A stretch of DNA of 64,000 nucleotides from Perna viridis (Eukaryota), in assembly GCA_037379345.1 (NCBI GenBank), contig CM074511.1, positions 9,052,001 to 9,116,000 of the forward strand, written 5' to 3'. This document shows positions 6,801-64,000 of this stretch, piece after piece; position 1 is the first letter of the stretch, and every line of letters starts with the position of its first letter. A program made the position numbers and the translations under genes. The notes under the pieces are model-generated. The model had not been told where the DNA came from. It searched no databases and saw only the letters and a list, made by a program, of their open reading frames with translations.

Positions 6801-7202
6801 ATTTGTAAATCTTTTCCCAATAATTGTGATACATGTACATGTATCTTTTCTGATGACCTATAACTAGCTGCATGTATTAAAAATTGAATTTGGATTTGTT
6901 TGAAATAATTTACCGAATAGTCCATTATTTTCTCATACAGGCCAAGCTATTCTATTGTTAGGACCTTCTTGGAAGTGGTTTGAGATTTTGAATTTAAATC
7001 TAGATTGAAGTTAGCTCAAAATGAGTTAGTATCCATGGTTCTTTTTTGGTTTGATCAAACATGATTTTATGAAGAATGGTCCTTGTTACAGTGAGCTTGC
7101 CATGATTAAAACATTTTACTTTACAGTAATCTGAAAATTGGTGTGTCCCAAGAATCTATGTATCTATGAAACAGTATGGTTTAAATTTTAAATATTTTTC
7201 AG

Positions 7203-7493
7203 GTGATTTGAGAATCAGTGTGTCTTTAATGAATCAGGAGGCCAGACAAGGAGAGAGGGTAAAGTTTTCATGTCAAGTTGTTACACAGGACCATAGTGAT
7301 AGAGACATAGTTCATATTAGATGGAAATTTAAAGATTCTTCATTAAAAGCTCCGTCCTCCAGATTTACCATATTAGACAAAGGACGGACTTTATTGATCA
7401 CTGATGTACAGAAGAATGATGCTGGAGATTATACATGTATAGGCTCATTACGAGGCAAGAAATATAAGTCAACTGCAAATCTTAAAGTTATAA
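7203..7493 (+). CDS. L1-like exon: Ig (I-set) domain
   Basis: TTTTTCAG acceptor and GTAAGT donor, phase 1-1. Motifs FSC...IRWKF...TLLITDVQKNDAGDYTC. Confidence 0.9.
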
Positions 7494-10400
7494 GTAAGTA
7501 TGAAACTCATTTCAAATGCAAGAATTTGAATAAAATTGCCATATTTTTTAATGATAAATATTGATAGTAGTTTGTGAATATAAATTGTCATCATATTAAA
7601 CTACTCTGAAACAAGATGAAGTGATGTTGCTGTTGGTTGATTTTAGATTTACACTTTTATTGTTTTATATAACATTTATAGGATTTGATAATCCTATTTA
7701 TTCTTACAAAATCAGCCTGTCCCTTAAATGTTTTTTTGTACAGTTTGCCATTCCTAAATGTTATATGGACCTCAATAGCTTGACTTTGGTCCAAACAACT
7801 TTTAGAAGGCAACAAACAGGTCCATATACAGTCATATCACCCTTGATTCTGTGAACAGTGAAATTTTTGTTACAGTTTAGTTATCATTATTTCAGTGGAT
7901 ATACCTGTAACAAGAAAATTAAGCAGTCCTGAATATTTTTTAACAATTTTAGGAACATCATGAAAAAAGGAGATAGATCACAGAATTGGCAAAATAAAGA
8001 AGGCATGCTAATTTCTCTGTGTTGGGTCTCAAGAAATATTTGTTCAAATATAGTTTACTTTTGTTGACAATGAACACAGCACTCAATCTGTACCATCTCA
8101 CTCCAAAGATTTCTAATGGCTCAAACAGGGGAGAAATAATTCTGTCTTTTAAAGCATTACAATTGAATCTTGAATTCTTGTTCATACTATGCAGAAATAA
8201 TCCTTTGAAATAATATTTACTTTTAAATAAGAATGTTGAAGGGTTTGTGGGTAGTCGCATGTTAGTATTACCAGTCAGTAATGTTTTACAGACTGTGAAG
8301 TTTCATGCTACGAGGTAAAAACCACAAATTTCCTCTATTTATATGAAAGTCAATGGGAAGACTTACATTGAAAGTTCATTGTGCAGGGCAAATCATTTTC
8401 ATAAAAGATAAAAAAATACATTGCATCTGGCAATAAAGTTTTTGACAGAAACTATTATTTTTACAAAAATAGACCAATGAATGGTCATATCTTGCTTTTA
8501 AGCAGTAAATAAACTGTCCTTGTGTTTACTGCTTTCTCTTAATGGAAACAACTCAGTACTATAGACCATCAAAATTTATTGCTTGGCTTTAAAAGGCCTT
8601 TCTAAAATAGTTTGGCCTTTTTTAATGGTGTAATGATTCTTTTATGTGTCTGAGCAATATTTAACTTGTTTATTTTCTGAACTGGGCAATTCACAAGATT
8701 GATCTTGTTTAAAAGGTTCAGCACAGAGGAAACAATGGACTTACTGATTTTTTGTTAATATTTTATGAACATTATAATGTTTGCCACTTATGTTAAGGCA
8801 GGGTTGGGAGATATATTGTTTAGAGATATTACATTAGAAACAACCTCCTACTTATAGAATGTATTCAATAGTTTAATTAGTGTAAGCAAACAGAATGTTA
8901 CCACCTCAGAGTGTTTGACAGCAGGGCTTCTATCTCAATGTACATTTCTATAACTTCTGGATTATATCTTATTCTAAGTTTCTATAGATTTCTACTATAA
9001 TTGCTAATTCAAAATTGAATCCTTTATAATTTAAAAGAAATAAAATCTATTTTAGATTCATACCGAAGTTGTCATTTATTTTGCATATTTCTTAAAAAGC
9101 TTTCATTCTTTTCCAATTAATTCATACAAATGTCAAATTGGGAAGATGCAAAACAGTTTCAGAATCTTCTAATTTCAATTTCATTGAGTCTAATTTAAAT
9201 TTTGTTGCTTAAAAGCAACAGAAAATTATCTAATTTTCAGGGCTACTACTTGATTCATTGTGAGCTAGGCATGAGTCACCAAGAACAATTTCCTAAATTA
9301 TAGAAATGCCCAACCAGGACATTAAACGTATTATAGTTCACTGCTTCCTTGACATAGCAAGTTTTATGCCATGTAATTATAGCAGAGTTAATTCACTGGT
9401 GTTCCTGACATTCCCATACAAATGATCTTTGTCCTACTGATCAATGCTTTTTTTTATACTTTTTAATTTATTTTTCTAATGACACAACTAGTTAGGCACC
9501 ATTGAATGTTTTGTCTCAGTACTGTTTTATTTTGGTTGTTGTCTGTCATTACATAACCATCACTGTCAACCAGAGCTAGCTCAGGGACATCATTTTATCA
9601 TTTAATTCCATTCCAAGTGAAAGAATAGCTACAAGATCTGTCATGTCTGTTTCTCATCTGTTACCCATGTGGTTAGAAATTCCAACACTATCTTCATATT
9701 TTCTCTTGTTACAGTTACAAATTAAGATAGGCATCAGAATATTGTTAATAAAGACTGAACGGAAAGTTCTTATTCTCCATGTTAGTGGGGTGCCTTTCTT
9801 TTTTAAATATTTTAGCCTATTTGAATCAAATACTATGCAAAAATTTGATTCTCATTTTTCACCATGTAAGGTGAGGATTGCCAGGTCACTATAGGTCACT
9901 ATTATATGTACCATAATCACTAAAAGTTTATACTCTCATTTTGTGGGCAACCAAAATGATAAAAAATTGTATTGGCCTGGAAAAATAATGCAGTTATGGA
10001 AAAAATAATGACTTGTCAATGAAATACATGTTGTATATTTCAGCTGTGCCATCTCCACCATACAATGTGGAATTAGTGACATGTATGGGACATAAGGCTG
10101 ACTTAGATTGGCGGGATGGTAGTGATGGTGGGGATCCAATCAAAGGATATTTAGTGCAATATAACACTTCAGATAACCCAAATTATTGGAACAGTAACTA
10201 TGAGGAAATTCCCATATCAACACCGGTGCCACGAACAATAGATTTATCACCATGGGGGACTTATTCTTTCCGTGTGTTAGCTCGAAACTCTATAGGATAT
10301 AGTGAGCCTAGTTTACCTACAAAAGAACCTTGCCCTGTGCCGCCTGGTCATCCAGATAGAAACCCAGACAAAGTTGGAACTAAGACAGACAGAAAGTATA

Positions 10401-13400
10401 AACTAGTTATCACATGGGAGGTAGGTGTTGCAGATTCAGTAACAACCAAACTGGTTATCACATGGGAGGTAGGTGTTGCAGATTCAGTTACAACCAAACT
10501 AGTTATCACATGGGAGATAGGTATTACAGATTGAGTAACAATCAAACTGGTTATCACATGGGAGGTAGGTATTACAGATTGAGTTACAACCAAACTGGTT
10601 ATCACATGGGAGGTAGGTATTACAGATTCAGTTACAACCAAACTGGTTATCACATGGGAGGTAGGTGTTGCAGATTGAGTTACAACCAAACTGGTTATCA
10701 CATGGGAGGTAGGTGCTGCAGATTGAGTTACAACCAAACTGGTTATCACATGGGAGGTAGGTATTACAGATTGAGTTACAACCAAATTGGTTATCACATG
10801 GGAGGTAGGTGTTGCAGATTGAGTTACAACCAAACTGGTTATCACGTGGGAGGTAGGTGCTGCAGATTCAGTTACAACCAAAATGGTTATCACATGGGAG
10901 GTAGGTATTACAGATTGAGTTACAACCAAACTGGTTATCACATGGGAGGTAGGTGTTGCAGATTCAGTTACAATCAAACTGGACCCCGCTTCCATTTGGA
11001 CTGAGCCATTCATCCTATTTTGAAATGTGTAGTTTAACGAAATTAATTTATATCTTATTTCTAGGTTATGGATTAATTTGCATATCCACCCCATATTGAA
11101 TATTTTCAATTAATGTATGCAACCAAAATTGAAAGGATTCATTAACAAAATAATTTCTATATTTACATATTCCCCATTATTCTGTATCTCCTTGAATCTC
11201 TACATTTACCAGCAGATAAGAGAAGTTAAACCTCACTTGTCTTATTAACATCAGCTTTTATTCTATTTATTTCTAAGTGAGCATGAGGTAGAGACTTGTA
11301 TATAATCATTGACATTCAAGGTTTATCTTTCAGAAAAAAGTGAAATATGTGCTAAGAAATTAATTCATCCATAAGCATTAAACAAGCTGTGGCTGAAGTT
11401 ACTGACAGGCTATTACTTATAATGGCAGGAAATAAGAAAAGGGCTGTAATTTCCTGTCAGACGGGAACAATCACTTGTGAACCGATTGCAATCAAATTGA
11501 TTTTTATGGAGTCTGGGATAACATCTCGATACTAACCTGTTCTCATCCCACTGCTCAATGAGAACAAGAATATTGAATTAGCTTTCAATGTTTGTCCTAT
11601 TTGTTATAGGCAATATCTGGTTTTCATTTGTTTTGATAAATTATATTTCGTGTCATCTTGTATTTAAATTCTACGTTTTTGTCTCTGCTCTGACATTATA
11701 CCAAAGCTTTTTAGGCTTGTAAATTGTTGCTTGAGTTTGTACCTTGTAATTGATGAAAATGATTGACAATTATGTTTCATGCCATATGAATCAATTTTCA
11801 CTGTCAGAAATTATCATTTTTTGCATAAAAAGTTAAGAAAAAAATTGAAAAATTACAGGAAGATGAGAATAATGACTGCTGGAAATCCTTAATACAAATA
11901 ACTACCATAAAACTAGAATGTTCTGAAGTAATTGCAGACCTAATTCCTTTTAACCATAGAATACAACTGAATAGAATGACTGAATTTGATTGTGTGGTAT
12001 GTCCTGTTGTGAGAATTGTAAGGCTGAAAAAAGAAGCTTAGAAAGATAATAGAACATTGTACTTGTTGACTGCTGTGAGAGGAGATCACTTTTAAAGACA
12101 TTTTTTTTTTAAATTTATCATCTTTTAAGTGTTGACTCATTCAGCTTGGTGACAGGTTCCTGTATTGATTGGAAAGTGTGAAAATGTTTTACTGGTTGAA
12201 AATAGAAAACTGTTTCTAAATGGAGTATAAGACACATAACCAATAAATGAACATGTTTTGATATTTAATTAGAACTTAAATCAACATGCCATGGTCTATC
12301 TATGACTTGATGGTACAGACATTTGTATAGTGTTAATTAAAAATCTCATTGCATGCTTTAATTATGGAGAGTTTGTAATTTAATTTTTTGCACGATATCT
12401 GAATTCATAGTACATGTATATGCCATATACTTGTATATATTTTTCCAAAATGGTCATTGTAGTTACTAAATAACTTTTTTAAGTTTACAGAGTGAGTCCA
12501 GTGGTTCTCATACAATTTTTTTATGTTTTTTTTTAAGTTATGATGCAATCACAAAATGGAATGGAAGCACAATACATTCAAATCTAGTCATGTTGGATGC
12601 AAACTAACTGATCAATAAAGTCCTTTTACTCTTGGGTATCAATTTTGATGAAAGGTAAAAACAATTTGAGGATTAAAATAGCCAATTTTATTTTTGTAAT
12701 TAGTGTTCAGAGAAAATAAGAGTGGAATAAAGTTTAACAGACTTTTCACCAAGCTGAATGGCATAGAAGACTTGTACATTTTTGACCAAGTTGCACTCAT
12801 GCAAATGGGCTCATAGAATGGTGATTTTAGGTTGGCCATTGGCAGGTGGGCAGGGAAAATACTTTCACATTTTTTTCAGCCACTGGATATTTGATACACA
12901 ACTTCAGCATCAGGTCCTATGTCGTGTGATGCAATTTCAAGTCTCTCACACTTCTAAGTCCTGTTTATGGCAAACTGGCAATTTCTGTCTTAGACCCATT
13001 TTCTTCATGTCAAATTATAATTATGTGTTGATATGCATAAAAGATACAGTTCCTACAGTGAGTCATATGGCTAACTTCAAGGAATAGGATTTAAATGACC
13101 TTCACCTGATGAACTTCCTTACCTGGACAAAGTCAAAATGTTAATACTTTCTATCAAACTTATTTTGAGGTATATATACATGAAATGATAGAAAGTTTAA
13201 ATCTCCTTCTAAATTGTCCAGTTAACTACCTAAGACACATCATTCAATCAGGGGAAGACCAACCCTATTTCCAGCAGTAAACTATTTTATTCGCTGTAAA
13301 ACAAATCAGCATGCTGAAACCATGCACTGATGTTTTCTTCTTAAAAAAAGACAAAATTTCTTTATTACAGCCAATGCCAAGGTTAGAACATAATGGACCA

Positions 13401-57035: not shown

Positions 57036-58133
57036 TGTAACGACCAAGGGGTCTTATATTTATAGAAGTGTGACTGTTACTTGCTAAGAAGCAGGTAAAT
57101 TTCAGATAACTTAATAATTTGTTTATGTCGGAAATCGACATTTGTTTACAATGTGATATAGTATGGAATGTCTATAAAATCTTTTAGAATTCCCAGTTGG
57201 TTGACCACATTGAATGAAAGATAGTGCTATTTATTAAACATGTTTACCTCTAATTTATTCCATTTGTGTGTGGATATTTAGAAATGGCTTATAACCATCC
57301 AAATTGGGAATTGGAAGTCCGTTTGTTTACATCAGCAGCAATTGTTTATTTGATGTGTACTTTGTGTACTTGAATTTTGACAGAGTGTGTATGCCATCGA
57401 TTGTTCTCCAAAATACGTGTGCTGATTGGTTAATGAGTTATATAAAAGAGCATTTCTAGTTCCAGCAGACTGTTTGTCTCAGTTCTGCAAGAGCAGAACA
57501 GATCTTGAGATCTGTTTGTATCCAGACTAGAAAATATCAACCTTCCACCATGTCAGAGCCAAGATTATGCTCAGAGTTGAGCCTGGTACGGTCAATGTAT
57601 ATGTAAATTAGCCATCTGGCTGGTTTAGTCAACCTTCATCCGCAAGTCCCAATAGATTTGTTTATGTGTCACTAAGACGCCATTACCTTAGACAGGTTGA
57701 ATATGAATTAATGTCCTTTGAGGAATTATGAGGCATAGTTTAATGTTTTGCTGAATTTACATCTTTAATAAAGTTTAAAGGTTGAAAGATCAACCTTGAT
57801 TTACCCAATAATGATAATAAGAATAAGTGATGTCAACCTTCACCGTCAACCTTTTTTTTTTAATGTCAACCTTCTATGTCAATCTTCGAAAGGCTGAAAG
57901 AGTTCTGTTTTTGGATGGTTATAAGACCCAGGTTGAGAATTTGTTTTGTCATTGTTATGAAACATTGAATATGATATATATAAATTTATGAAATCATTTT
58001 GAATCCTGACTTGAGTATAATTATTTCCACCTAATATCAAAACAAAGACTCACACAAATTCTAAACGTTTCGGTGGAGTCCTTTGTACTTCTATACATGT
58101 ATGCCACTCAGTAGAAAGGGCGAAATCGTTACA
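57036..58133 (+). repeat. 5' LTR (1098 bp)
   Basis: Perfect 8-bp inverted termini TGTAACGA...TCGTTACA, with the right end 1 nt before the PBS. The left boundary is inferred without a second LTR. Confidence 0.8.
57422..57448 (+). promoter_or_regulatory. LTR promoter: inverted CCAAT box plus TATA box
   Basis: CTGATTGGTT at 57422 and TATATAAAAG at 57439; AATAAA at 57767. Confidence 0.55.
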
Positions 58134-58134
58134 C

Positions 58135-58152
58135 TGGTGTCAGAAGTGGGAT
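58135..58152 (+). other. Primer-binding site complementary to the tRNA-Leu 3' end
   Basis: TGGTGTCAGAAGTGGGAT is the reverse complement of AUCCCACUUCUGACACCA, the eukaryotic tRNA-Leu(CAA)-type 3' end. Confidence 0.9.
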
Positions 58153-58276
58153 CCATGTGAATTTGTTCATGGTTGAAATACAGATGGTAAAGAATTTGAG
58201 AAGCCGCTGTTCCCCTTAAAATAGAATAAAACTGAAAAAGAAATTTTCGTGTCATTTTTACTGAATCTGGTATACA

Positions 58277-59480
58277 ATGGATGATTCCCGAGAAGTAACC
58301 CTTAACCTGAACCATTCATTGCAAGATGAAAATAGTGATGATGAAACCCTTCCGTTAGATGAGGCTCCCGAAATAGAGTGGGTTGACTCGACCAGACAGA
58401 TGTCTAATCCAAATAATTCAGATAATGTTGAATTAAATATTGATGTTAAGACCTTGTTGCAAGAGCAAATAAGGAATATGTCACAAGAATTTTTAACCTA
58501 CCAAAAAGAAGTATTTGTGTCTATTTCACAAGTGAAAGAAGGTTTTGATGACGAAATTTTGACTCTTAGAAGTCGCATGCAAACGAGGGAGGAAGAATTA
58601 CAAGAAAAAGATCAAACAATAAAAAGATTGAAATATCTAATTACAGAAAAAAACAATACAAATACAAGTCAAATACTTCTGGATAAAGATGAATTCCCTA
58701 GATTTAACAACATAATTTCACAAAAGCATTTAGGTGTTTCAATGAAACCCCAACTTTTTGATGGTAGCAAAGATCTGGAGGAATATTTGGCTCAGTTTGA
58801 GATTTTAGCAGAAATAAATAATTGGGACTACCCAACAAAATCACAATATTTGGCGGGAAGCTTAAAAGGGGAAGCAAGAGCTCTACTGAATGAATTAAAT
58901 AAGGCAGCCAGGAGGGATTATGATCAAATGGTTTCCACATTAAATGCCAGGTATGGGTCGGCTGAAAGGGCTGAAGTATTTAGGGCGAGATTGCAATCTT
59001 GAGTAAGGGGAAAAGACGAAAGTGCAAGCAATTAAAAAATTGGCAAGGCAAGCATATCCAGGCGCTCAATCTTCATTAACAGCAATCTTAGCCCTTGAAC
59101 ACTTCATAGATGCTATACTCGATGGGGATGGAGTCAAACCCACGAAATACAGGTGAGGCAGAGACTCTAGCCGTGAGGTTTGAAGCGCTGCGCATGTCAG
59201 AGAGACAGAAAGGTCGTATGGTAAGGTAGGCGGAAGTTACCCAAAACCAATTAAAAAAAAACCAAAAGACTGTACCGGGGAGGGCATTAGTGTCCAACTC
59301 TCCGAAATCAGTAGGGAACTGAGCAATCTTACAAAAGAAATAAAAAGATTGGCCCAAAATCAAAGAAATACCCCCACACACAGAACGGCCAGGGAAGGAA
59401 GTTTGGTAACCAAAGTAGAAATTACGGTTATGATAATAGAAATTTCAACCAAAATCAAAGCAGGGTCAGGCACAATTACA
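58277..59480 (+). pseudogene. gag: gag, disrupted (241-codon intact N-terminal part, premature TGA at 59000)
   Basis: Coiled-coil N-terminus, then MKPQLFDGSKDLEEYLAQFEILAEINNW...LKGEA...LNARYG. Continues in broken frames (LARQAYP, LALEHFIDA). Confidence 0.85.
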
Positions 59481-59489
59481 ATAATTTCT

Positions 59490-62400
59490 CTCAAAAGATT
59501 GAGCCAGTGAATGTAAACTTGACAACTGCAACTGGTGAGAGTTCACCGTTTATTGGACAAATTTCAATTTAATTTTGTCTAGGAACCAAAACGTATAATC
59601 ACAATGTATTAGTGGCAGACATACCTAATGAAGGAATTTTGGGTATGGACTTTATGACAGCCTATGAATGTGATGTTTTACTGAGCAAATACAAATTGAT
59701 AATTAAAGGGGAGACAATTCCATGTTTCCATTACACTAGTAATGCTAATTGTTATAAGGTTGTTGTACAAGAGACCCTAGAGGTGCCTCCTAACTCAGAA
59801 ATTATTGTTCCGGGGGAACCAAATGGGCCCATGTTTAGAGGTTCAATAGGATTGATTGAACCTAATGATAATTTTATTCAGAATAAAGGGTTGTTAGTGG
59901 CAAGAGCATTAGTAGACCAAAGGTCGGCAATATTCCACTAAGAATTATAAATATCAATGATGATTCCTGTACACTGTACAAAAGTACTAATGTAGCTACA
60001 TGCTACCAGATAGAAAATAAAGACATAAGAACTTCAAGGGTGGTAAATAAATATCTCGGCGTGTCAAGATGAAGCAGACCAGGAGAGATGTCTACCAGAA
60101 CACTTATATGAAATGTATGAATCTTGCCATGGACAGCTTGATGAGACCCAGAAAAAAAAATTCAAAGAGTTGCTGTTACAGTATAGCAACGTATTTTCAA
60201 AGTCATCGGAAGATATTGGGCTGACAGACTTAGTGCAGCAAACCATCAACACCGGCAACCATCCACCGGTCAGACAGACTAAGAAGAATACCCTTAGCAC
60301 GGATGAAAGATGCAGAATCTGAGATCCAGAAGATGGTAAGTCAAGACATTATAGAACCTTCGACAAGCCCCTGGAACTCTAACATAGAACTGGTGAGGAA
60401 ATCGGACCAGACATGGCATTTTTGTATAGATTATAGAGCCGTTAATGAGTGTGTTATGAAAGATTCACACCCATTGCCCAGAATAGATGATACATTGGAT
60501 GCATTGTCAGGTGCCAAATATTTTTCAAATGTAGATTTGAAGGCAGGATATTATCAAATTCCTGTGGCTGAGGTTGATCGGCCTAAAACAGCCTTTTCAT
60601 TCCCGGGGGGAGGTCTATGGCAATTCAAAAGAATGCCTATGGGACTATGTAATAGTGCTCCTGTTTTTGAGAGATTAATGGAGAGAGTTTTAACGGGGTT
60701 GACCTTTAAGATATATTTAGTATATCTTAACGATATAATTATATTTTCAAAATCACTATCAAGTCATATGTCTGGCTTGAAAGAAGTGTTTCAAAGGTTG
60801 AAAGAAGCCAACCTAAAACTGAGCCCAAAGAAATGTCATTTTCTTAAAAAAGAAATAAAGTTTTTGGGGCATGTTGTAAGTGATAAGGGGGTTACAACTG
60901 ATTCAAGTAAGATTCAAGTGGTTGAAAACTGGCCTATTCCCCGTAGTGTGAAAGAAGTTAGGAGTTTCTTAGGGTTGACATTATATTATAGGAAATTTAT
61001 TTTGAGATATGCTGACAAAACTAAACCTTTGTATAAGGTAACAGAGAAAAATCAAACGTTTAAGTAGACAAATGAGTGTCAGAATGCTTTTGAGGAGCTT
61101 AAGAATAAGAATGCACTCGTGCAAGCACCAATTTTAGTTTACCCTACAGAGGAAAATTTTTTTATTTTGGACTGTGATGCCTCAAATTTAGGGATGGGTT
61201 CTGTATTGTCCCAAGTATAAGATGGAGTGGAAAAGGTTGTTTGCTACTTCAGCAAAACCTTTAACAGAGCAGAGAGACGATATTGTGTAACCAGGCGTGA
61301 ATTATTGGCTGTGGTAGCCTCAATAAAAAAGTTCCATCATTTCCTACACGGTCGACATTTTAGAATAAGAAGTGACCATGGATCACTAAGGTGGTTGTTT
61401 AATTTTAAGAATCCTGAAGGACAGTTGGCAAGGTGGTTTGAGGTATTGGCCTCATACAACTTCAAGATTGAACACAGAGCAGGAAGATCACATGGGAATG
61501 CAGATGCATTAAGTCGGAGGCCATGTTATGACAAAGAATGTCCTCACTGTACTAGAGCCGAAACCAACTACGAACTTAAAGCCGATTATCTCAATGATAA
61601 CCCTGAGAAGGTTGAATGTAGCCATACCTTGGAGGATGAAGTAAAGCTGAAAGATGCAACCATAGAAGCTATACAGAGTTGTTTACAAGATGAACAATGT
61701 TCTTCAAACCAGAAAAATACAGAAAAGTCACAGTCCAATAAAGATGGCTAAGTTTATAAAGAATGGGGAAAACAGGTTTCCCTTGACGCACACCTTGAGA
61801 AATCTGATTTGGTCAGAGTATGTACAAGAAAAAAATAGTCCACTATGGTCCTAATCAGGAAAAACCAAGCCAAGCAGAATGAGACGTTTGATAAAGACAA
61901 TCCAAAACCACAAAAAAAAACAGAAAAACTACCTCAGCTTCAGAGGGAGGATGAGATATTAGGTGTTGTATTAGAATGGAAAAAAGTCAATTGTAAACTG
62001 AAACGGGAAGATATTTCTCAATTAAGTCCAGAATTAAAGTTCTATTGGTCCAGACTGGATTCCATTATTTTTTACCATGAGGTCCTGTATAGAAAATGGG
62101 AGAATAATATGGGGAAGCAATGTGAATTGCATATTATCATACCTAAGAGTATTAGGCGGTTTGTAATGAACCAGATCCATAATACTGTAACGGGAGGTCA
62201 TCTGGGGTTCAAGAAAACCCTATCTAAAATTAATAAAAGATATTGGTGGTACAAAATGAGACAAGAAGTAAAATACTGGTGCATCAAATGTGATGTCTGT
62301 GCTTCAAAGAAAGTACCACAAAGAAAACCGAAGGCTCCAATGCAACAATACCTTGTTGGTGCTCCATGGGAAAGAATGGCATTAGATATACTAGGTCCCT

Positions 62401-63241
62401 TATCTTTAAGTAGAGAAAGTAATAAGCACCTACTTGCTGTACAGGATTATTTTACTAAGTGGGCTGAGGCAATACCAATTAGGAATACAGAGGCAGCTAC
62501 ATTGGCCCAGAAATTTATTGAAAGAATCATTTCAATCTTTGGGGTACCTCTTTCAATTCACTCAGACCAAGGGTCCAACTTTGAGTCAAATGTTTTCAAA
62601 GAGATGTGCAAAATTTTAGGTATCCATAAGACCATTACAACTCCTTTTAGACCAAAATCAGATGGGATGGTTGAAAAGGCAAACTCAACTATAGAGACCA
62701 TGCTTTCAGCATTTGTGAGTGCCCACCAACAAGATTGGGATGAATATATTTATTTTCTAACGTTAGCTTATAGGTCAGCTGAGCATGAAAGCTTAGGGGT
62801 ATCTCCATGTTCTATGTTACTGGGGAGAGAAATAAACCTTCCTGTAGACTTGATATTAGGTAAACCAGAAACTGATAGGTCCCAAACTATTGAAAAAAAA
62901 CGCATATGTGTATGAGCTAGCACAGAAGTTAGAGCAAGTGCACAAGATCGCAAGGCGAAGATTAAAAATTTCTAGCAATAGAATGAAGCATTATTATAAT
63001 GCAAATGCAAAAATGCAGCAGTTAGGAGCGCCAGTGTGGCTACACAACCCAAAGCGTAGAAAAGGCTCATGCCCAAAGTTACAGAGAAACTGGGAGGGCC
63101 CATATGTTGTTATTAGTAAACTTAATGAAGTTATCTACAGAGTTCAAAAAGGTGTACAGGTCAAAGGTTGTTCACCAGGATAGGTTGAAACCATATCTAG
63201 GAGAAAACTCACCACAATGGTTCCAGAAATTAACAAAATGA
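59490..63241 (+). pseudogene. pol: pol, disrupted: protease C-terminal half, RT, RNase H, integrase
   Basis: ILGMDF; SPWNS...FCIDYR...PLPRIDD...DLKAGYYQ...MPMGL...YLNDII (YxDD mutated); LDCDAS, RRELLA, SDHGSL, NADALSR; HHCC, ALDILGP, SDQGSNF, DGMVE; WEGPY. Confidence 0.93.
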
Positions 63242-63375
63242 AGGTCATGTCCAGAACAGATTCATCAATAATTACGTTAAGAAAAAAAAAGTTAGATTAC
63301 TTTTAAATGTATAAAAAGAAATGTATAAATCTCATGAGAGAATTAAAGATTAAGGAAGTTTCCTCTATATTACAG

Positions 63376-64000
63376 ATCACCATATACACTTGCGGTATAT
63401 GCAACGACTTTAGTTTCGACCAAAGCATAACCTGCAAAAGACACATGGAAGAACAACACAGTGGTTTTGGTCTCAGGTGCAGTGATTGTAGAGTGCTTGT
63501 TAGCCGTCACGCAGCACACAAAAATTGTAATGGGCAGTTGAAGAGGGTGAATAGGTCCACCATGACCTTTACTAGAGTAGAGGAGGAGACGTATGTCAAA
63601 TTTTTGAAGAGTAGAGAAAGTCGAATGATAATAGAAAGAGTATCGGTAGAAGAAAAGAACAGAAGAACTAGAAATAACAAAAGGAAGTCACATTCGGTCT
63701 CAAATAGAAAAGAGAGGTCACCGCTGGCAGGGTTGTACCAGGATAACCAAAAAAACTTCACAACAGGCAGTATTGAAAACCAGAAGAAAAGACGTAGAGA
63801 TGATGACAGCCGTGAGAAAAAGAGGGCTATGTCCAACCAGAATGTTAGCAAATCAGGAAAAGAAAAGGAGAATGTCATAGAAAAGAAAAGAAAGGATGGA
63901 AGTGATCAAAAGAGAGTAGTAAAGAACAAGGTTGAGGGCGACATTAGGAAATTGAAAGATCTTGCCGATGAATTAGCAACTTCAGCAGACGAGGTATCTA
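63376..64000 (+). CDS. Third (accessory) ORF of the Gypsy element: C2H2-like zinc finger(s) plus a Lys/Arg/Glu-rich region, 3'-partial
   Basis: Frame is open from ATG 63307 to the window end. Acceptor TTTCCTCTATATTACAG ends at 63375. Translation ITIYTCGICNDFSFDQSITCKRHMEEQHSGFGLRCSDCRVLVSRHAAHKNC...QKKRRRD... Confidence 0.7.
   Translation, partial: MTIYTCGICNDFSFDQSITCKRHMEEQHSGFGLRCSDCRVLVSRHAAHKNCNGQLKRVNRSTMTFTRVEEETYVKFLKSRESRMIIERVSVEEKNRRTRNNKRKSHSVSNRKERSPLAGLYQDNQKNFTTGSIENQKKRRRDDDSREKKRAMSNQNVSKSGKEKENVIEKKRKDGSDQKRVVKNKVEGDIRKLKDLADELATSADEVS

Follow-up and report, generated by a model that had tools for sequence, protein, structure and literature searches.

A third gene in the env position of a molluscan Ty3/Gypsy retrotransposon encodes paired zinc fingers and a KCTD-type BTB domain and is probably expressed by splicing

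The DNA analysed here, referred to as the window, is a stretch of 64,000 nt from Perna viridis (GenBank assembly GCA_037379345.1, contig CM074511.1, positions 9,052,001 to 9,116,000 of the forward strand). Its 3' end is occupied by a Ty3/Gypsy (Metaviridae) long terminal repeat (LTR) retrotransposon, a decayed copy of a mollusc lineage, which carries gag, pol and, in the env position, a third open reading frame (ORF) that we call ORF3 (Table 1). The element has two TG...CA LTRs and a target-site duplication, a 4-bp ATAT that flanks it on both sides, and its pol is ordered reverse transcriptase (RT) - RNase H - integrase, as expected of Ty3/Gypsy. The pol stop codon at 63239-63241 and the frame that stays open from 63376 to the window end were both as described in a first-pass annotation; between stop codons this frame opens at 63307, and in-frame ATGs at 63307 and 63334 lie upstream of the proposed splice acceptor. 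That annotation had asked whether the ORF is internal to the element, and it is, because a polypurine tract, the 3' LTR and the target-site duplication, all past the window end, come after ORF3, with the polypurine tract between ORF3 and the 3' LTR.

The N-terminal domain of ORF3 contains two zinc fingers whose Cys/His spacings, like the basic KKRRR motif and the acceptor ending at 63375, were read correctly the first time. Finger 1 (C-x2-C-x13-H-x4-H) fits the classical C2H2 pattern C-x2-C-x12/13-H-x3/5-H with a modelled beta-beta-alpha fold, and its named neighbours in the ESM Atlas are mostly C2H2 clusters. Finger 2 had been read as C-x2-C-x6-H-x2-H-x2-C; C35, C38 and C51 are conserved in one alignment (at least 90%) and H48 is invariant in another, of seven rows, but H45 is not conserved, and the motif is therefore C-x2-C-x9-H-x2-C. 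The predicted fold of this domain in the window copy is compact, with a predicted local distance difference test score (pLDDT) of 94.8. An intact relative, P0152 (468 aa, about 61% identity in the finger domain), is modelled with confidence at both ends, in an N-terminal domain (about residues 8-100) and a C-terminal one, the linker between them being mostly below pLDDT 50. The C-terminal domain, missed in the first-pass annotation, emerged from the domain and structure check that it had proposed, and alters the functional reading: it matches BTB_2 (PF02214, E 5.9e-12, 46.2 bits against a cut-off of 21.4), its closest PDB sequence matches are KCTD9, KCTD7 and SHKBP1, its closest fold matches are KCTD1, KCTD13 and KCTD10, and it is a KCTD/T1-type BTB by both sequence and fold. 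ORF3 of the window copy is interrupted twice, by one in-frame stop and by a frameshift that lies some 100 nt beyond the window end.

No membrane glycoprotein was recognised in ORF3 by hydropathy or domain content, that is, neither the signal peptide nor the transmembrane segment that characterise errantivirus env. A 19-residue hydrophobic window of at least 1.6 was absent from the window's two frames, as had been stated for the visible part, and from all but one of 19 relatives; P0167 (1.76) owes it to an N-terminal extension ending in FQ that we read as intron sequence. Motifs resembling nuclear localisation signals (NLS) were found in 18 of 21 ORF3 sequences, whereas motifs resembling nuclear export signals (NES), sought with a simple pattern, occupied no shared position.

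ORF3 recurs with the same neighbours. Among 18 genomic matches to the zinc-finger domain, 17 have integrase upstream on the same strand and 15 have the BTB downstream. The exceptional copy, C14b (G000:C14:22890001-22906000, L060-L061), has ORF3 antisense to the nearest gag/pol; another fragment of the BTB occurs on the opposite strand, and an inversion or nested insertion is the probable cause. Later genome searches added further subfamilies, and although subfamilies are only 26-60% identical in protein, they share the position of ORF3 and its splice signals. The ratio of nonsynonymous to synonymous substitution (dN/dS) between the window copy and its sister C7a was 0.19 for the zinc fingers (76 codons), 0.21 for the BTB (38), 0.25 for integrase (100) and 0.46 for the linker (145); against sister C4a it was 0.50 for the BTB and 0.39 for integrase. 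Comparisons with distant subfamilies are saturated, and the identity filter pushes dN downward; values for gag were left out of account, its query having been out of frame. Judged from these codon substitutions, the analysis shows ORF3 to be under purifying selection. Integrase and ORF3 identities did not correlate, in a comparison made uninformative by noisy high-scoring segment pairs from broken copies.

At E<=0.001 a hidden Markov model profile search returned 212 protein sequences, among which generic multi-finger proteins are numerous. Of the 150 matches listed, 76 were scanned for domains, mostly single-stretch ones having been picked; 25 of these contained BTB_2 and eight were gene models fused to pol domains. 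Word-indexed homolog searches returned only the window's own protein or nothing, and scans of viral and metagenome contigs gave no ORF3 relative. Intact ORF3s recur in the named hosts Mytilus, Crassostrea/Magallana, Pecten, Pinctada and Gigantopelta, and thus in mussels, oysters, a scallop, a pearl oyster and a snail. By homology, mollusc gene models labelled 'potassium channel regulatory protein', 'trichohyalin-like' or 'BTB domain-containing protein' are likely to be retrotransposon ORF3s. We regard the anatomy of the gene, its internal position, its conservation and its domain content as close to certain.

Table 1. Coordinates of the element and of ORF3 (window positions unless stated).
Feature	Position	Strand	Basis
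5' LTR (TGTAAC...GTTACA), 1098 bp	57036..58133	+	match to 3' LTR
TATA box of LTR promoter (inferred)	57439..57448	+	box before mini-exon in seven subfamilies
LTR mini-exon, 12 codons (MSEPRLCSELSL), likely exon 1 of ORF3	57550..57585	+	
AGGTTGA/TCAACCT cluster, both orientations, downstream of donor; possible protein-binding array	57629..57936	.	
Primer-binding site, complementary to tRNA-Leu(CAG)	58135..58152	+	ARAGORN on genomic array carrying the complement
Leader donor of the first-pass annotation, ATG...ATG-GTAAAG, not favoured	58169..58192	+	
gag, broken	58277..59572 (3' end approximate)	+	stop 59000-59002, then frameshifts
pol in pieces: protease-like, RT, RNase H, integrase	59573..63241	+	domain matches
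TTAAG branch-point-like motif, pyrimidine tract, phase-0 acceptor CAG	63350..63375	+	
ORF3 N-terminal domain: C2H2 and C2HC fingers, strand, helix, ~95 aa	63376..63660	+	model
ORF3 charged linker, predicted disordered, NLS-like KKRRR at 63784-63798	63661..64000	+	
ORF3 beyond the window: proline-rich stretch, KCTD-type BTB, then polypurine tract and 3' LTR	BTB ends at G000:C1 9116780		

The acceptor in front of ORF3 (TTTCCTCTATATTACAG, ending at 63375) is conserved. Its TTAAG, about 24 nt before the AG, is kept in sister C7a; CTCAT at 63331, earlier put forward as the branch point, is not. An in-frame YAG stands four to five codons before the first Cys in 14 of the 18 genomic matches, the other four being three C6-type copies in which it is mutated and one frameshifted copy in which it is ambiguous. 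It was found again in five copies of four further subfamilies (C5b, C1d, C2d, C4c and C5d), four other decayed copies being uninformative, and the phase-0 acceptor is conserved in nine subfamilies in all. Of 36 database relatives whose N-terminus is extended (redundant records included), 23 have a Gln six positions ahead of Cys1, the residue that read-through of a CAG acceptor would give. C2 and C11 have TAG as the acceptor, which is a stop in the ORF3 frame, and from there to the first finger the frame contains no ATG, so that these subfamilies require an upstream start exon; C6, C14b and C4c have an ATG immediately after the acceptor or no more than two codons on.

The likely start exon lies in the 5' LTR. 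Its ATG at 57550 is the first after the TATA box, in the context CCACC ATG, and it ends in a phase-0 donor, CTG/GTACGG, with the GT at 57586. The combination of TATA box, ATG and phase-0 GT was found in seven of eight subfamily LTRs, with a distance of 58-112 nt, in seven subfamilies, from the TATA or TATA-like box to the ATG or donor of the mini-exon. The exon has 13 codons in C6 (ATG/GTATGA), 12 in C2 (CTG/GTAATT), 10 in C11 (AAA/GTTAGT, reading MSEVLSESAK), 11 in C5b (ATG/GTAAAT) and five in C1d (TTG/GTATAT), and in C4c (ATG/GTAAAT) it is reduced to the ATG. The best independent support for this donor appears to be a Mytilus californianus RefSeq model, P0169 (XP_052068568/XP_052075141), which starts with MSDVMSIK and enters the finger domain at the position of the C11 acceptor; its nearest genomic relatives are C1c and C11. 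Similar short MS...K peptides open P0055, P0181 and P0184. We consider it likely from these signals that 57585 is joined to 63376, a splice that would remove the PBS, gag and pol as a 5790-nt intron. The earlier proposal of an env-position gene for a nuclear zinc-finger protein, expressed by a phase-0 splice that removes gag-pol, thus stands as the most likely reading, but with a different donor.

Two further observations were made in this region. A second TATA-like box lies at 57977-57990, about 155 nt before the LTR end, and is also present in C7a, C4a, C2 and C1b; it could start a shorter gag-pol mRNA that avoids most of the 22 ATGs before gag. Donors inside gag were noticed by eye.

In the mechanism that we propose, a single LTR transcript would either be spliced, joining the mini-exon of the 5' LTR to the acceptor behind pol to give ORF3 mRNA, or be kept whole for Gag-Pol synthesis and packaging. 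The protein is probably nuclear, as its basic motifs and lack of membrane segments suggest, and its BTB is quite likely to self-assemble, usually as a pentamer by analogy with known domains of this type, presenting several finger pairs on flexible arms for multivalent binding. The oligomer would then bind the element's own LTR DNA and promote element expression, by activation or anti-silencing. This last step is the least certain, and we put forward both the step and the model as a whole tentatively, while ranking LTR binding first among the possible functions. Classical tandem C2H2 fingers are mostly DNA binders, and it is because ORF3 has such a pair, with finger-1 helix residues that vary by subfamily, that DNA binding is favoured, thin as that basis is. 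The structures that rank highest as neighbours of residues 1-54 are mostly tandem C2H2 pairs bound to DNA (HIC2, CTCF, ZBTB38), and the segment aligns weakly to HIC2, CTCF and ZBTB pairs (Z 3.8-4.2), the top match being an archaeal-virus finger (Z 4.7).

The LTR contains a possible array of protein-binding sites: 9 of the window's 22 AGGTTGA motifs fall, in both orientations, within 400 bp of it (57537-57936), one pair forming GGTTGA-AAGA-TCAACC. Half-sites of the form GGTWRA cluster after the donor in four subfamilies (0/300 shuffles each) and do not do so in C6, C2 or C11. These clusters may be sites for host factors. At the same LTR place a related subfamily (C4c, C15) has a tandem repeat of 22-24 bp with GGTAAA...TTAACC, and the C11 LTR has ATTTGC seven times. 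The word GTAAACA resembles what we take to be a forkhead site, and six TAAACA/TGTTTA words, presumably also forkhead-like, occur in U3 and the exon (57036-57585), a number reached in 2% of 200 shuffles.

Several observations weigh against the splice or the DNA-binding role as proposed. The three later subfamilies each fit the mini-exon rule only with a relaxed threshold (an offset of +58 in C5b, a 5/9 donor in C1d, an ATG alone in C4c), and the putative LTR of C14b, whose limits are uncertain, showed no mini-exon. The rule also fires in 9-15% of shuffled segments for each LTR, and the product of these rates, 1.4e-4, overstates the case because the rule was set after the fact and the LTRs share ancestry. 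It fires as well in two elements that share the PBS and in which no ORF3 was detected. Both the ATG and GTACGG are retained in sisters C4a and C7a, in which a frameshift or stop nevertheless interrupts the mini-exon. Three putative RNA runs contained no ORF3 junction, in an element interior that was barely covered (scattered reads, depth below 6), and with one DNA-like run added, the 15 joints displayed out of 41 included none of the GT..AG type; this result says nothing for or against splicing. On the protein side, fold matches of the N-terminal domain are weak, the best Z of 4.7 being below the tool's meaningful level, Foldseek gave no match at E<=0.001, and the fold searches as a group gave no clear one for the whole N-terminal domain. 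Finally, the GGTWRA cluster does not track finger-helix similarity: the helices of the window copy and C6 are similar, and of these two only the window copy has the cluster.

With the same gene and splice, ORF3 might instead be an export factor like Rev or CERV, the BTB ring using its fingers and basic arms to bind unspliced genomic RNA and take it out of the nucleus. Because the intron would take out the PBS, gag and pol, genomic RNA would have to avoid retention while unspliced. The motif clusters lie just inside this intron; in that segment C4c contains four short inverted repeats, and the folding z of C5b is -2.96. The folding z of the post-donor segment is weaker than -2 in six of seven LTRs, however, the NES-like motifs are not aligned between relatives, and classical tandem C2H2 fingers mostly bind DNA. 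The report on CERV, the accessory protein of the Ty3/Gypsy element Cer1 of Caenorhabditis elegans (PMC10309623), describes an env-position, spliced, nuclear protein with an NLS and a Cys finger, predicted to form a ring of at least five subunits and needed for genomic RNA export. No sequence or fold link between ORF3 and CERV was seen, and none was looked for. We rank this function second and consider it rather unlikely.

The BTB could also make ORF3 a Cullin-3 (Cul3) substrate adaptor comparable to Vif or Vpx, in which the BTB would recruit Cul3 and the fingers would capture a host restriction or silencing factor for degradation. The host genome encodes Cul3, and the long variable linker would give reach. 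According to PMC10856315, most human KCTD BTBs (15-16 members) bind Cul3, and the best sequence matches of ORF3, KCTD9, KCTD7 and SHKBP1, are all treated there as binders. The non-binders KCTD16, KCTD15 and KCTD1 nevertheless score almost as well in sequence and fold, the domain order is opposite to that of KCTD adaptors, and the N-terminal domain resembles a nucleic-acid-binding finger pair. A complex prediction for two BTB copies (P0152, residues 340-468) with a mollusc Cul3 (P0216, residues 10-190), run without alignments, scored 0.00 and is evidence neither way. This role seems unlikely, and is placed third. Taken jointly, the proposition that a host KCTD BTB was captured to make a spliced accessory protein, acting either as a Cul3 recruiter against a host silencing factor or as a CERV-like ring for genomic RNA export, falls a little short of an even chance.

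A targeting factor that tethers integrase or the pre-integration complex to chromatin sites would likewise combine DNA-binding-like fingers with an oligomerisation domain, and the ATAT duplication lies in an AT-rich flank, several 3' LTR flanks also beginning with AT. Such an AT preference could come from integrase alone, and we find this function improbable.

The first-pass annotation had placed the start of ORF3 in the leader after the PBS, at ATG 58169, with a donor at 58187 and the N-terminus MVEIQM. The join is in phase 0, and the second TATA-like box (57977) could start a shorter RNA. The donor, given as GTAAGA, actually reads ATG/GTAAAG; matched to the U1 consensus it scores 6/9, as does the LTR donor. 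Sister C4a keeps only TTG/GTAAAG. The ATG is absent from all ten leaders inspected besides that of the window copy, and it would be the 21st ATG after the main TATA box, with 20 upstream if transcription starts there. The comparison of sister copies and dN/dS that had been suggested thus bore out the acceptor and the constraint on ORF3 and not the leader donor; the donor that is conserved is the one 600 nt further upstream, within the 5' LTR, and the RefSeq model matches the LTR exon instead. We judge the leader start very improbable. A further reading, in which ORF3 was captured from the host or inserted separately and does nothing for the element, as its host-type BTB_2 domain and the antisense copy C14b might suggest, is largely refuted by purifying selection, by its occurrence in five mollusc genera besides the host, and by a position and splice signals common to such divergent subfamilies.

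The LTR-spliced nuclear factor that we favour has known counterparts in its expression logic. The first-pass annotation knew of no characterised example; CERV is a characterised analogue. The two are alike in an env-position ORF, a spliced mRNA and nuclear location (both only probable for ORF3), a non-membrane protein, an NLS or NLS-like motif, a Cys finger and a domain predicted to form a ring, but PMC10309623 gives CERV five exons, N-terminal exons shared with Gag, and H, M and G-protein-like domains. ORF3 would instead have one intron and an LTR mini-exon, and its protein joins a C2H2 and a C2HC finger in tandem to a captured KCTD BTB; no homology between ORF3 and CERV is shown. A short upstream peptide is spliced onto the third ORF in the env of the ZAM and Beagle subclades of Drosophila errantiviruses, as set out in bioRxiv 10.1101/2023.08.03.551782; that protein is an F-type membrane glycoprotein, whereas ORF3 is without a hydrophobic segment and its likely peptide exon precedes the PBS, being part of the LTR.

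Human KCTD proteins (KCTD5/7/9/10/13, Cul3 adaptors; KCTD1/15, non-binders) share the T1/KCTD-type BTB with ORF3 by sequence and fold, but the BTB of ORF3 is C-terminal, connected to zinc fingers through a low-complexity linker that can reach ~530 aa, and encoded by a mobile element. BTB and C2H2 fingers are combined in ZBTB/POK transcription factors; ORF3 differs in its opposite order, its T1-type rather than ZBTB dimer-type BTB, and its mere two fingers. Non-env third ORFs occur in bdelloid LTR elements and additional ORFs in plant ones (PMC5408684, PMC7264820), where the main texts describe GDSL esterases, DEDDy exonucleases and coiled-coil, transmembrane or antisense ORFs and contain neither 'BTB' nor 'zinc'. 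The main text of PMC6238403, which defines the Mag, C-clade and MolGy clades of Ty3/Gypsy, is without 'ORF' or 'zinc'. Full-text searches, with Repbase, Dfam and subscription journals outside their scope, found no paper on a BTB-bearing gene of an LTR element. The cargo is thus apparently undescribed, its expression logic being known from errantivirus env and CERV.

LTR retrotransposons without env are usually treated as gag-pol only, and CERV is the one characterised spliced nuclear accessory protein that we found among them. If a second, unrelated one has been maintained by selection in mussels, oysters, scallops and a snail, this would show that the regulation typical of complex retroviruses evolved repeatedly; were the Cul3 or export role true, an accessory function of complex retroviruses would have arisen independently in a Metaviridae lineage. 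ORF3 also gives a handle on how elements escape silencing or nuclear retention in molluscs.

The copy in the window is an old insertion and is dead. Its LTRs are about 93-94% identical (92.9% and 94.5% for the two halves), the 3' LTR beyond the window (L010:9236-9855) has a ~480-nt deletion, and several stops and frameshifts interrupt pol. The pol domains scored 1.6e-34 (RVT_1), 1.2e-24 (RT_RNaseH), 2.4e-18 (Integrase_H2C2) and 3.5e-13 (rve), with an SH3-like domain at the integrase C-terminus; the protease-like stretch was assigned by position only, and gag gave Retrotrans_gag only at E 0.036. Four further PBS matches had no ORF3 in the 10 kb examined. The complement of the PBS occurs about 30 times at ~560-bp spacing in an array at G000:C8:24302968-24356679, one checked stretch of which is tRNA-Leu(CAG). 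Related subfamilies carry different primer sites, TGGTGGCAGCGG... and TGGTACCTCCGA... (G000:C1 L109:3143; G000:C4 L141:3231 region), from which it follows that the ORF3 lineage switched primer tRNA. Elsewhere in the window, exon-sized frames resembling a host gene lie at 7130-20065 on the plus strand, with a 48-bp tandem repeat adjoining one exon; they look like the immunoglobulin and fibronectin type III repeats of a neuroglian/L1-type gene.

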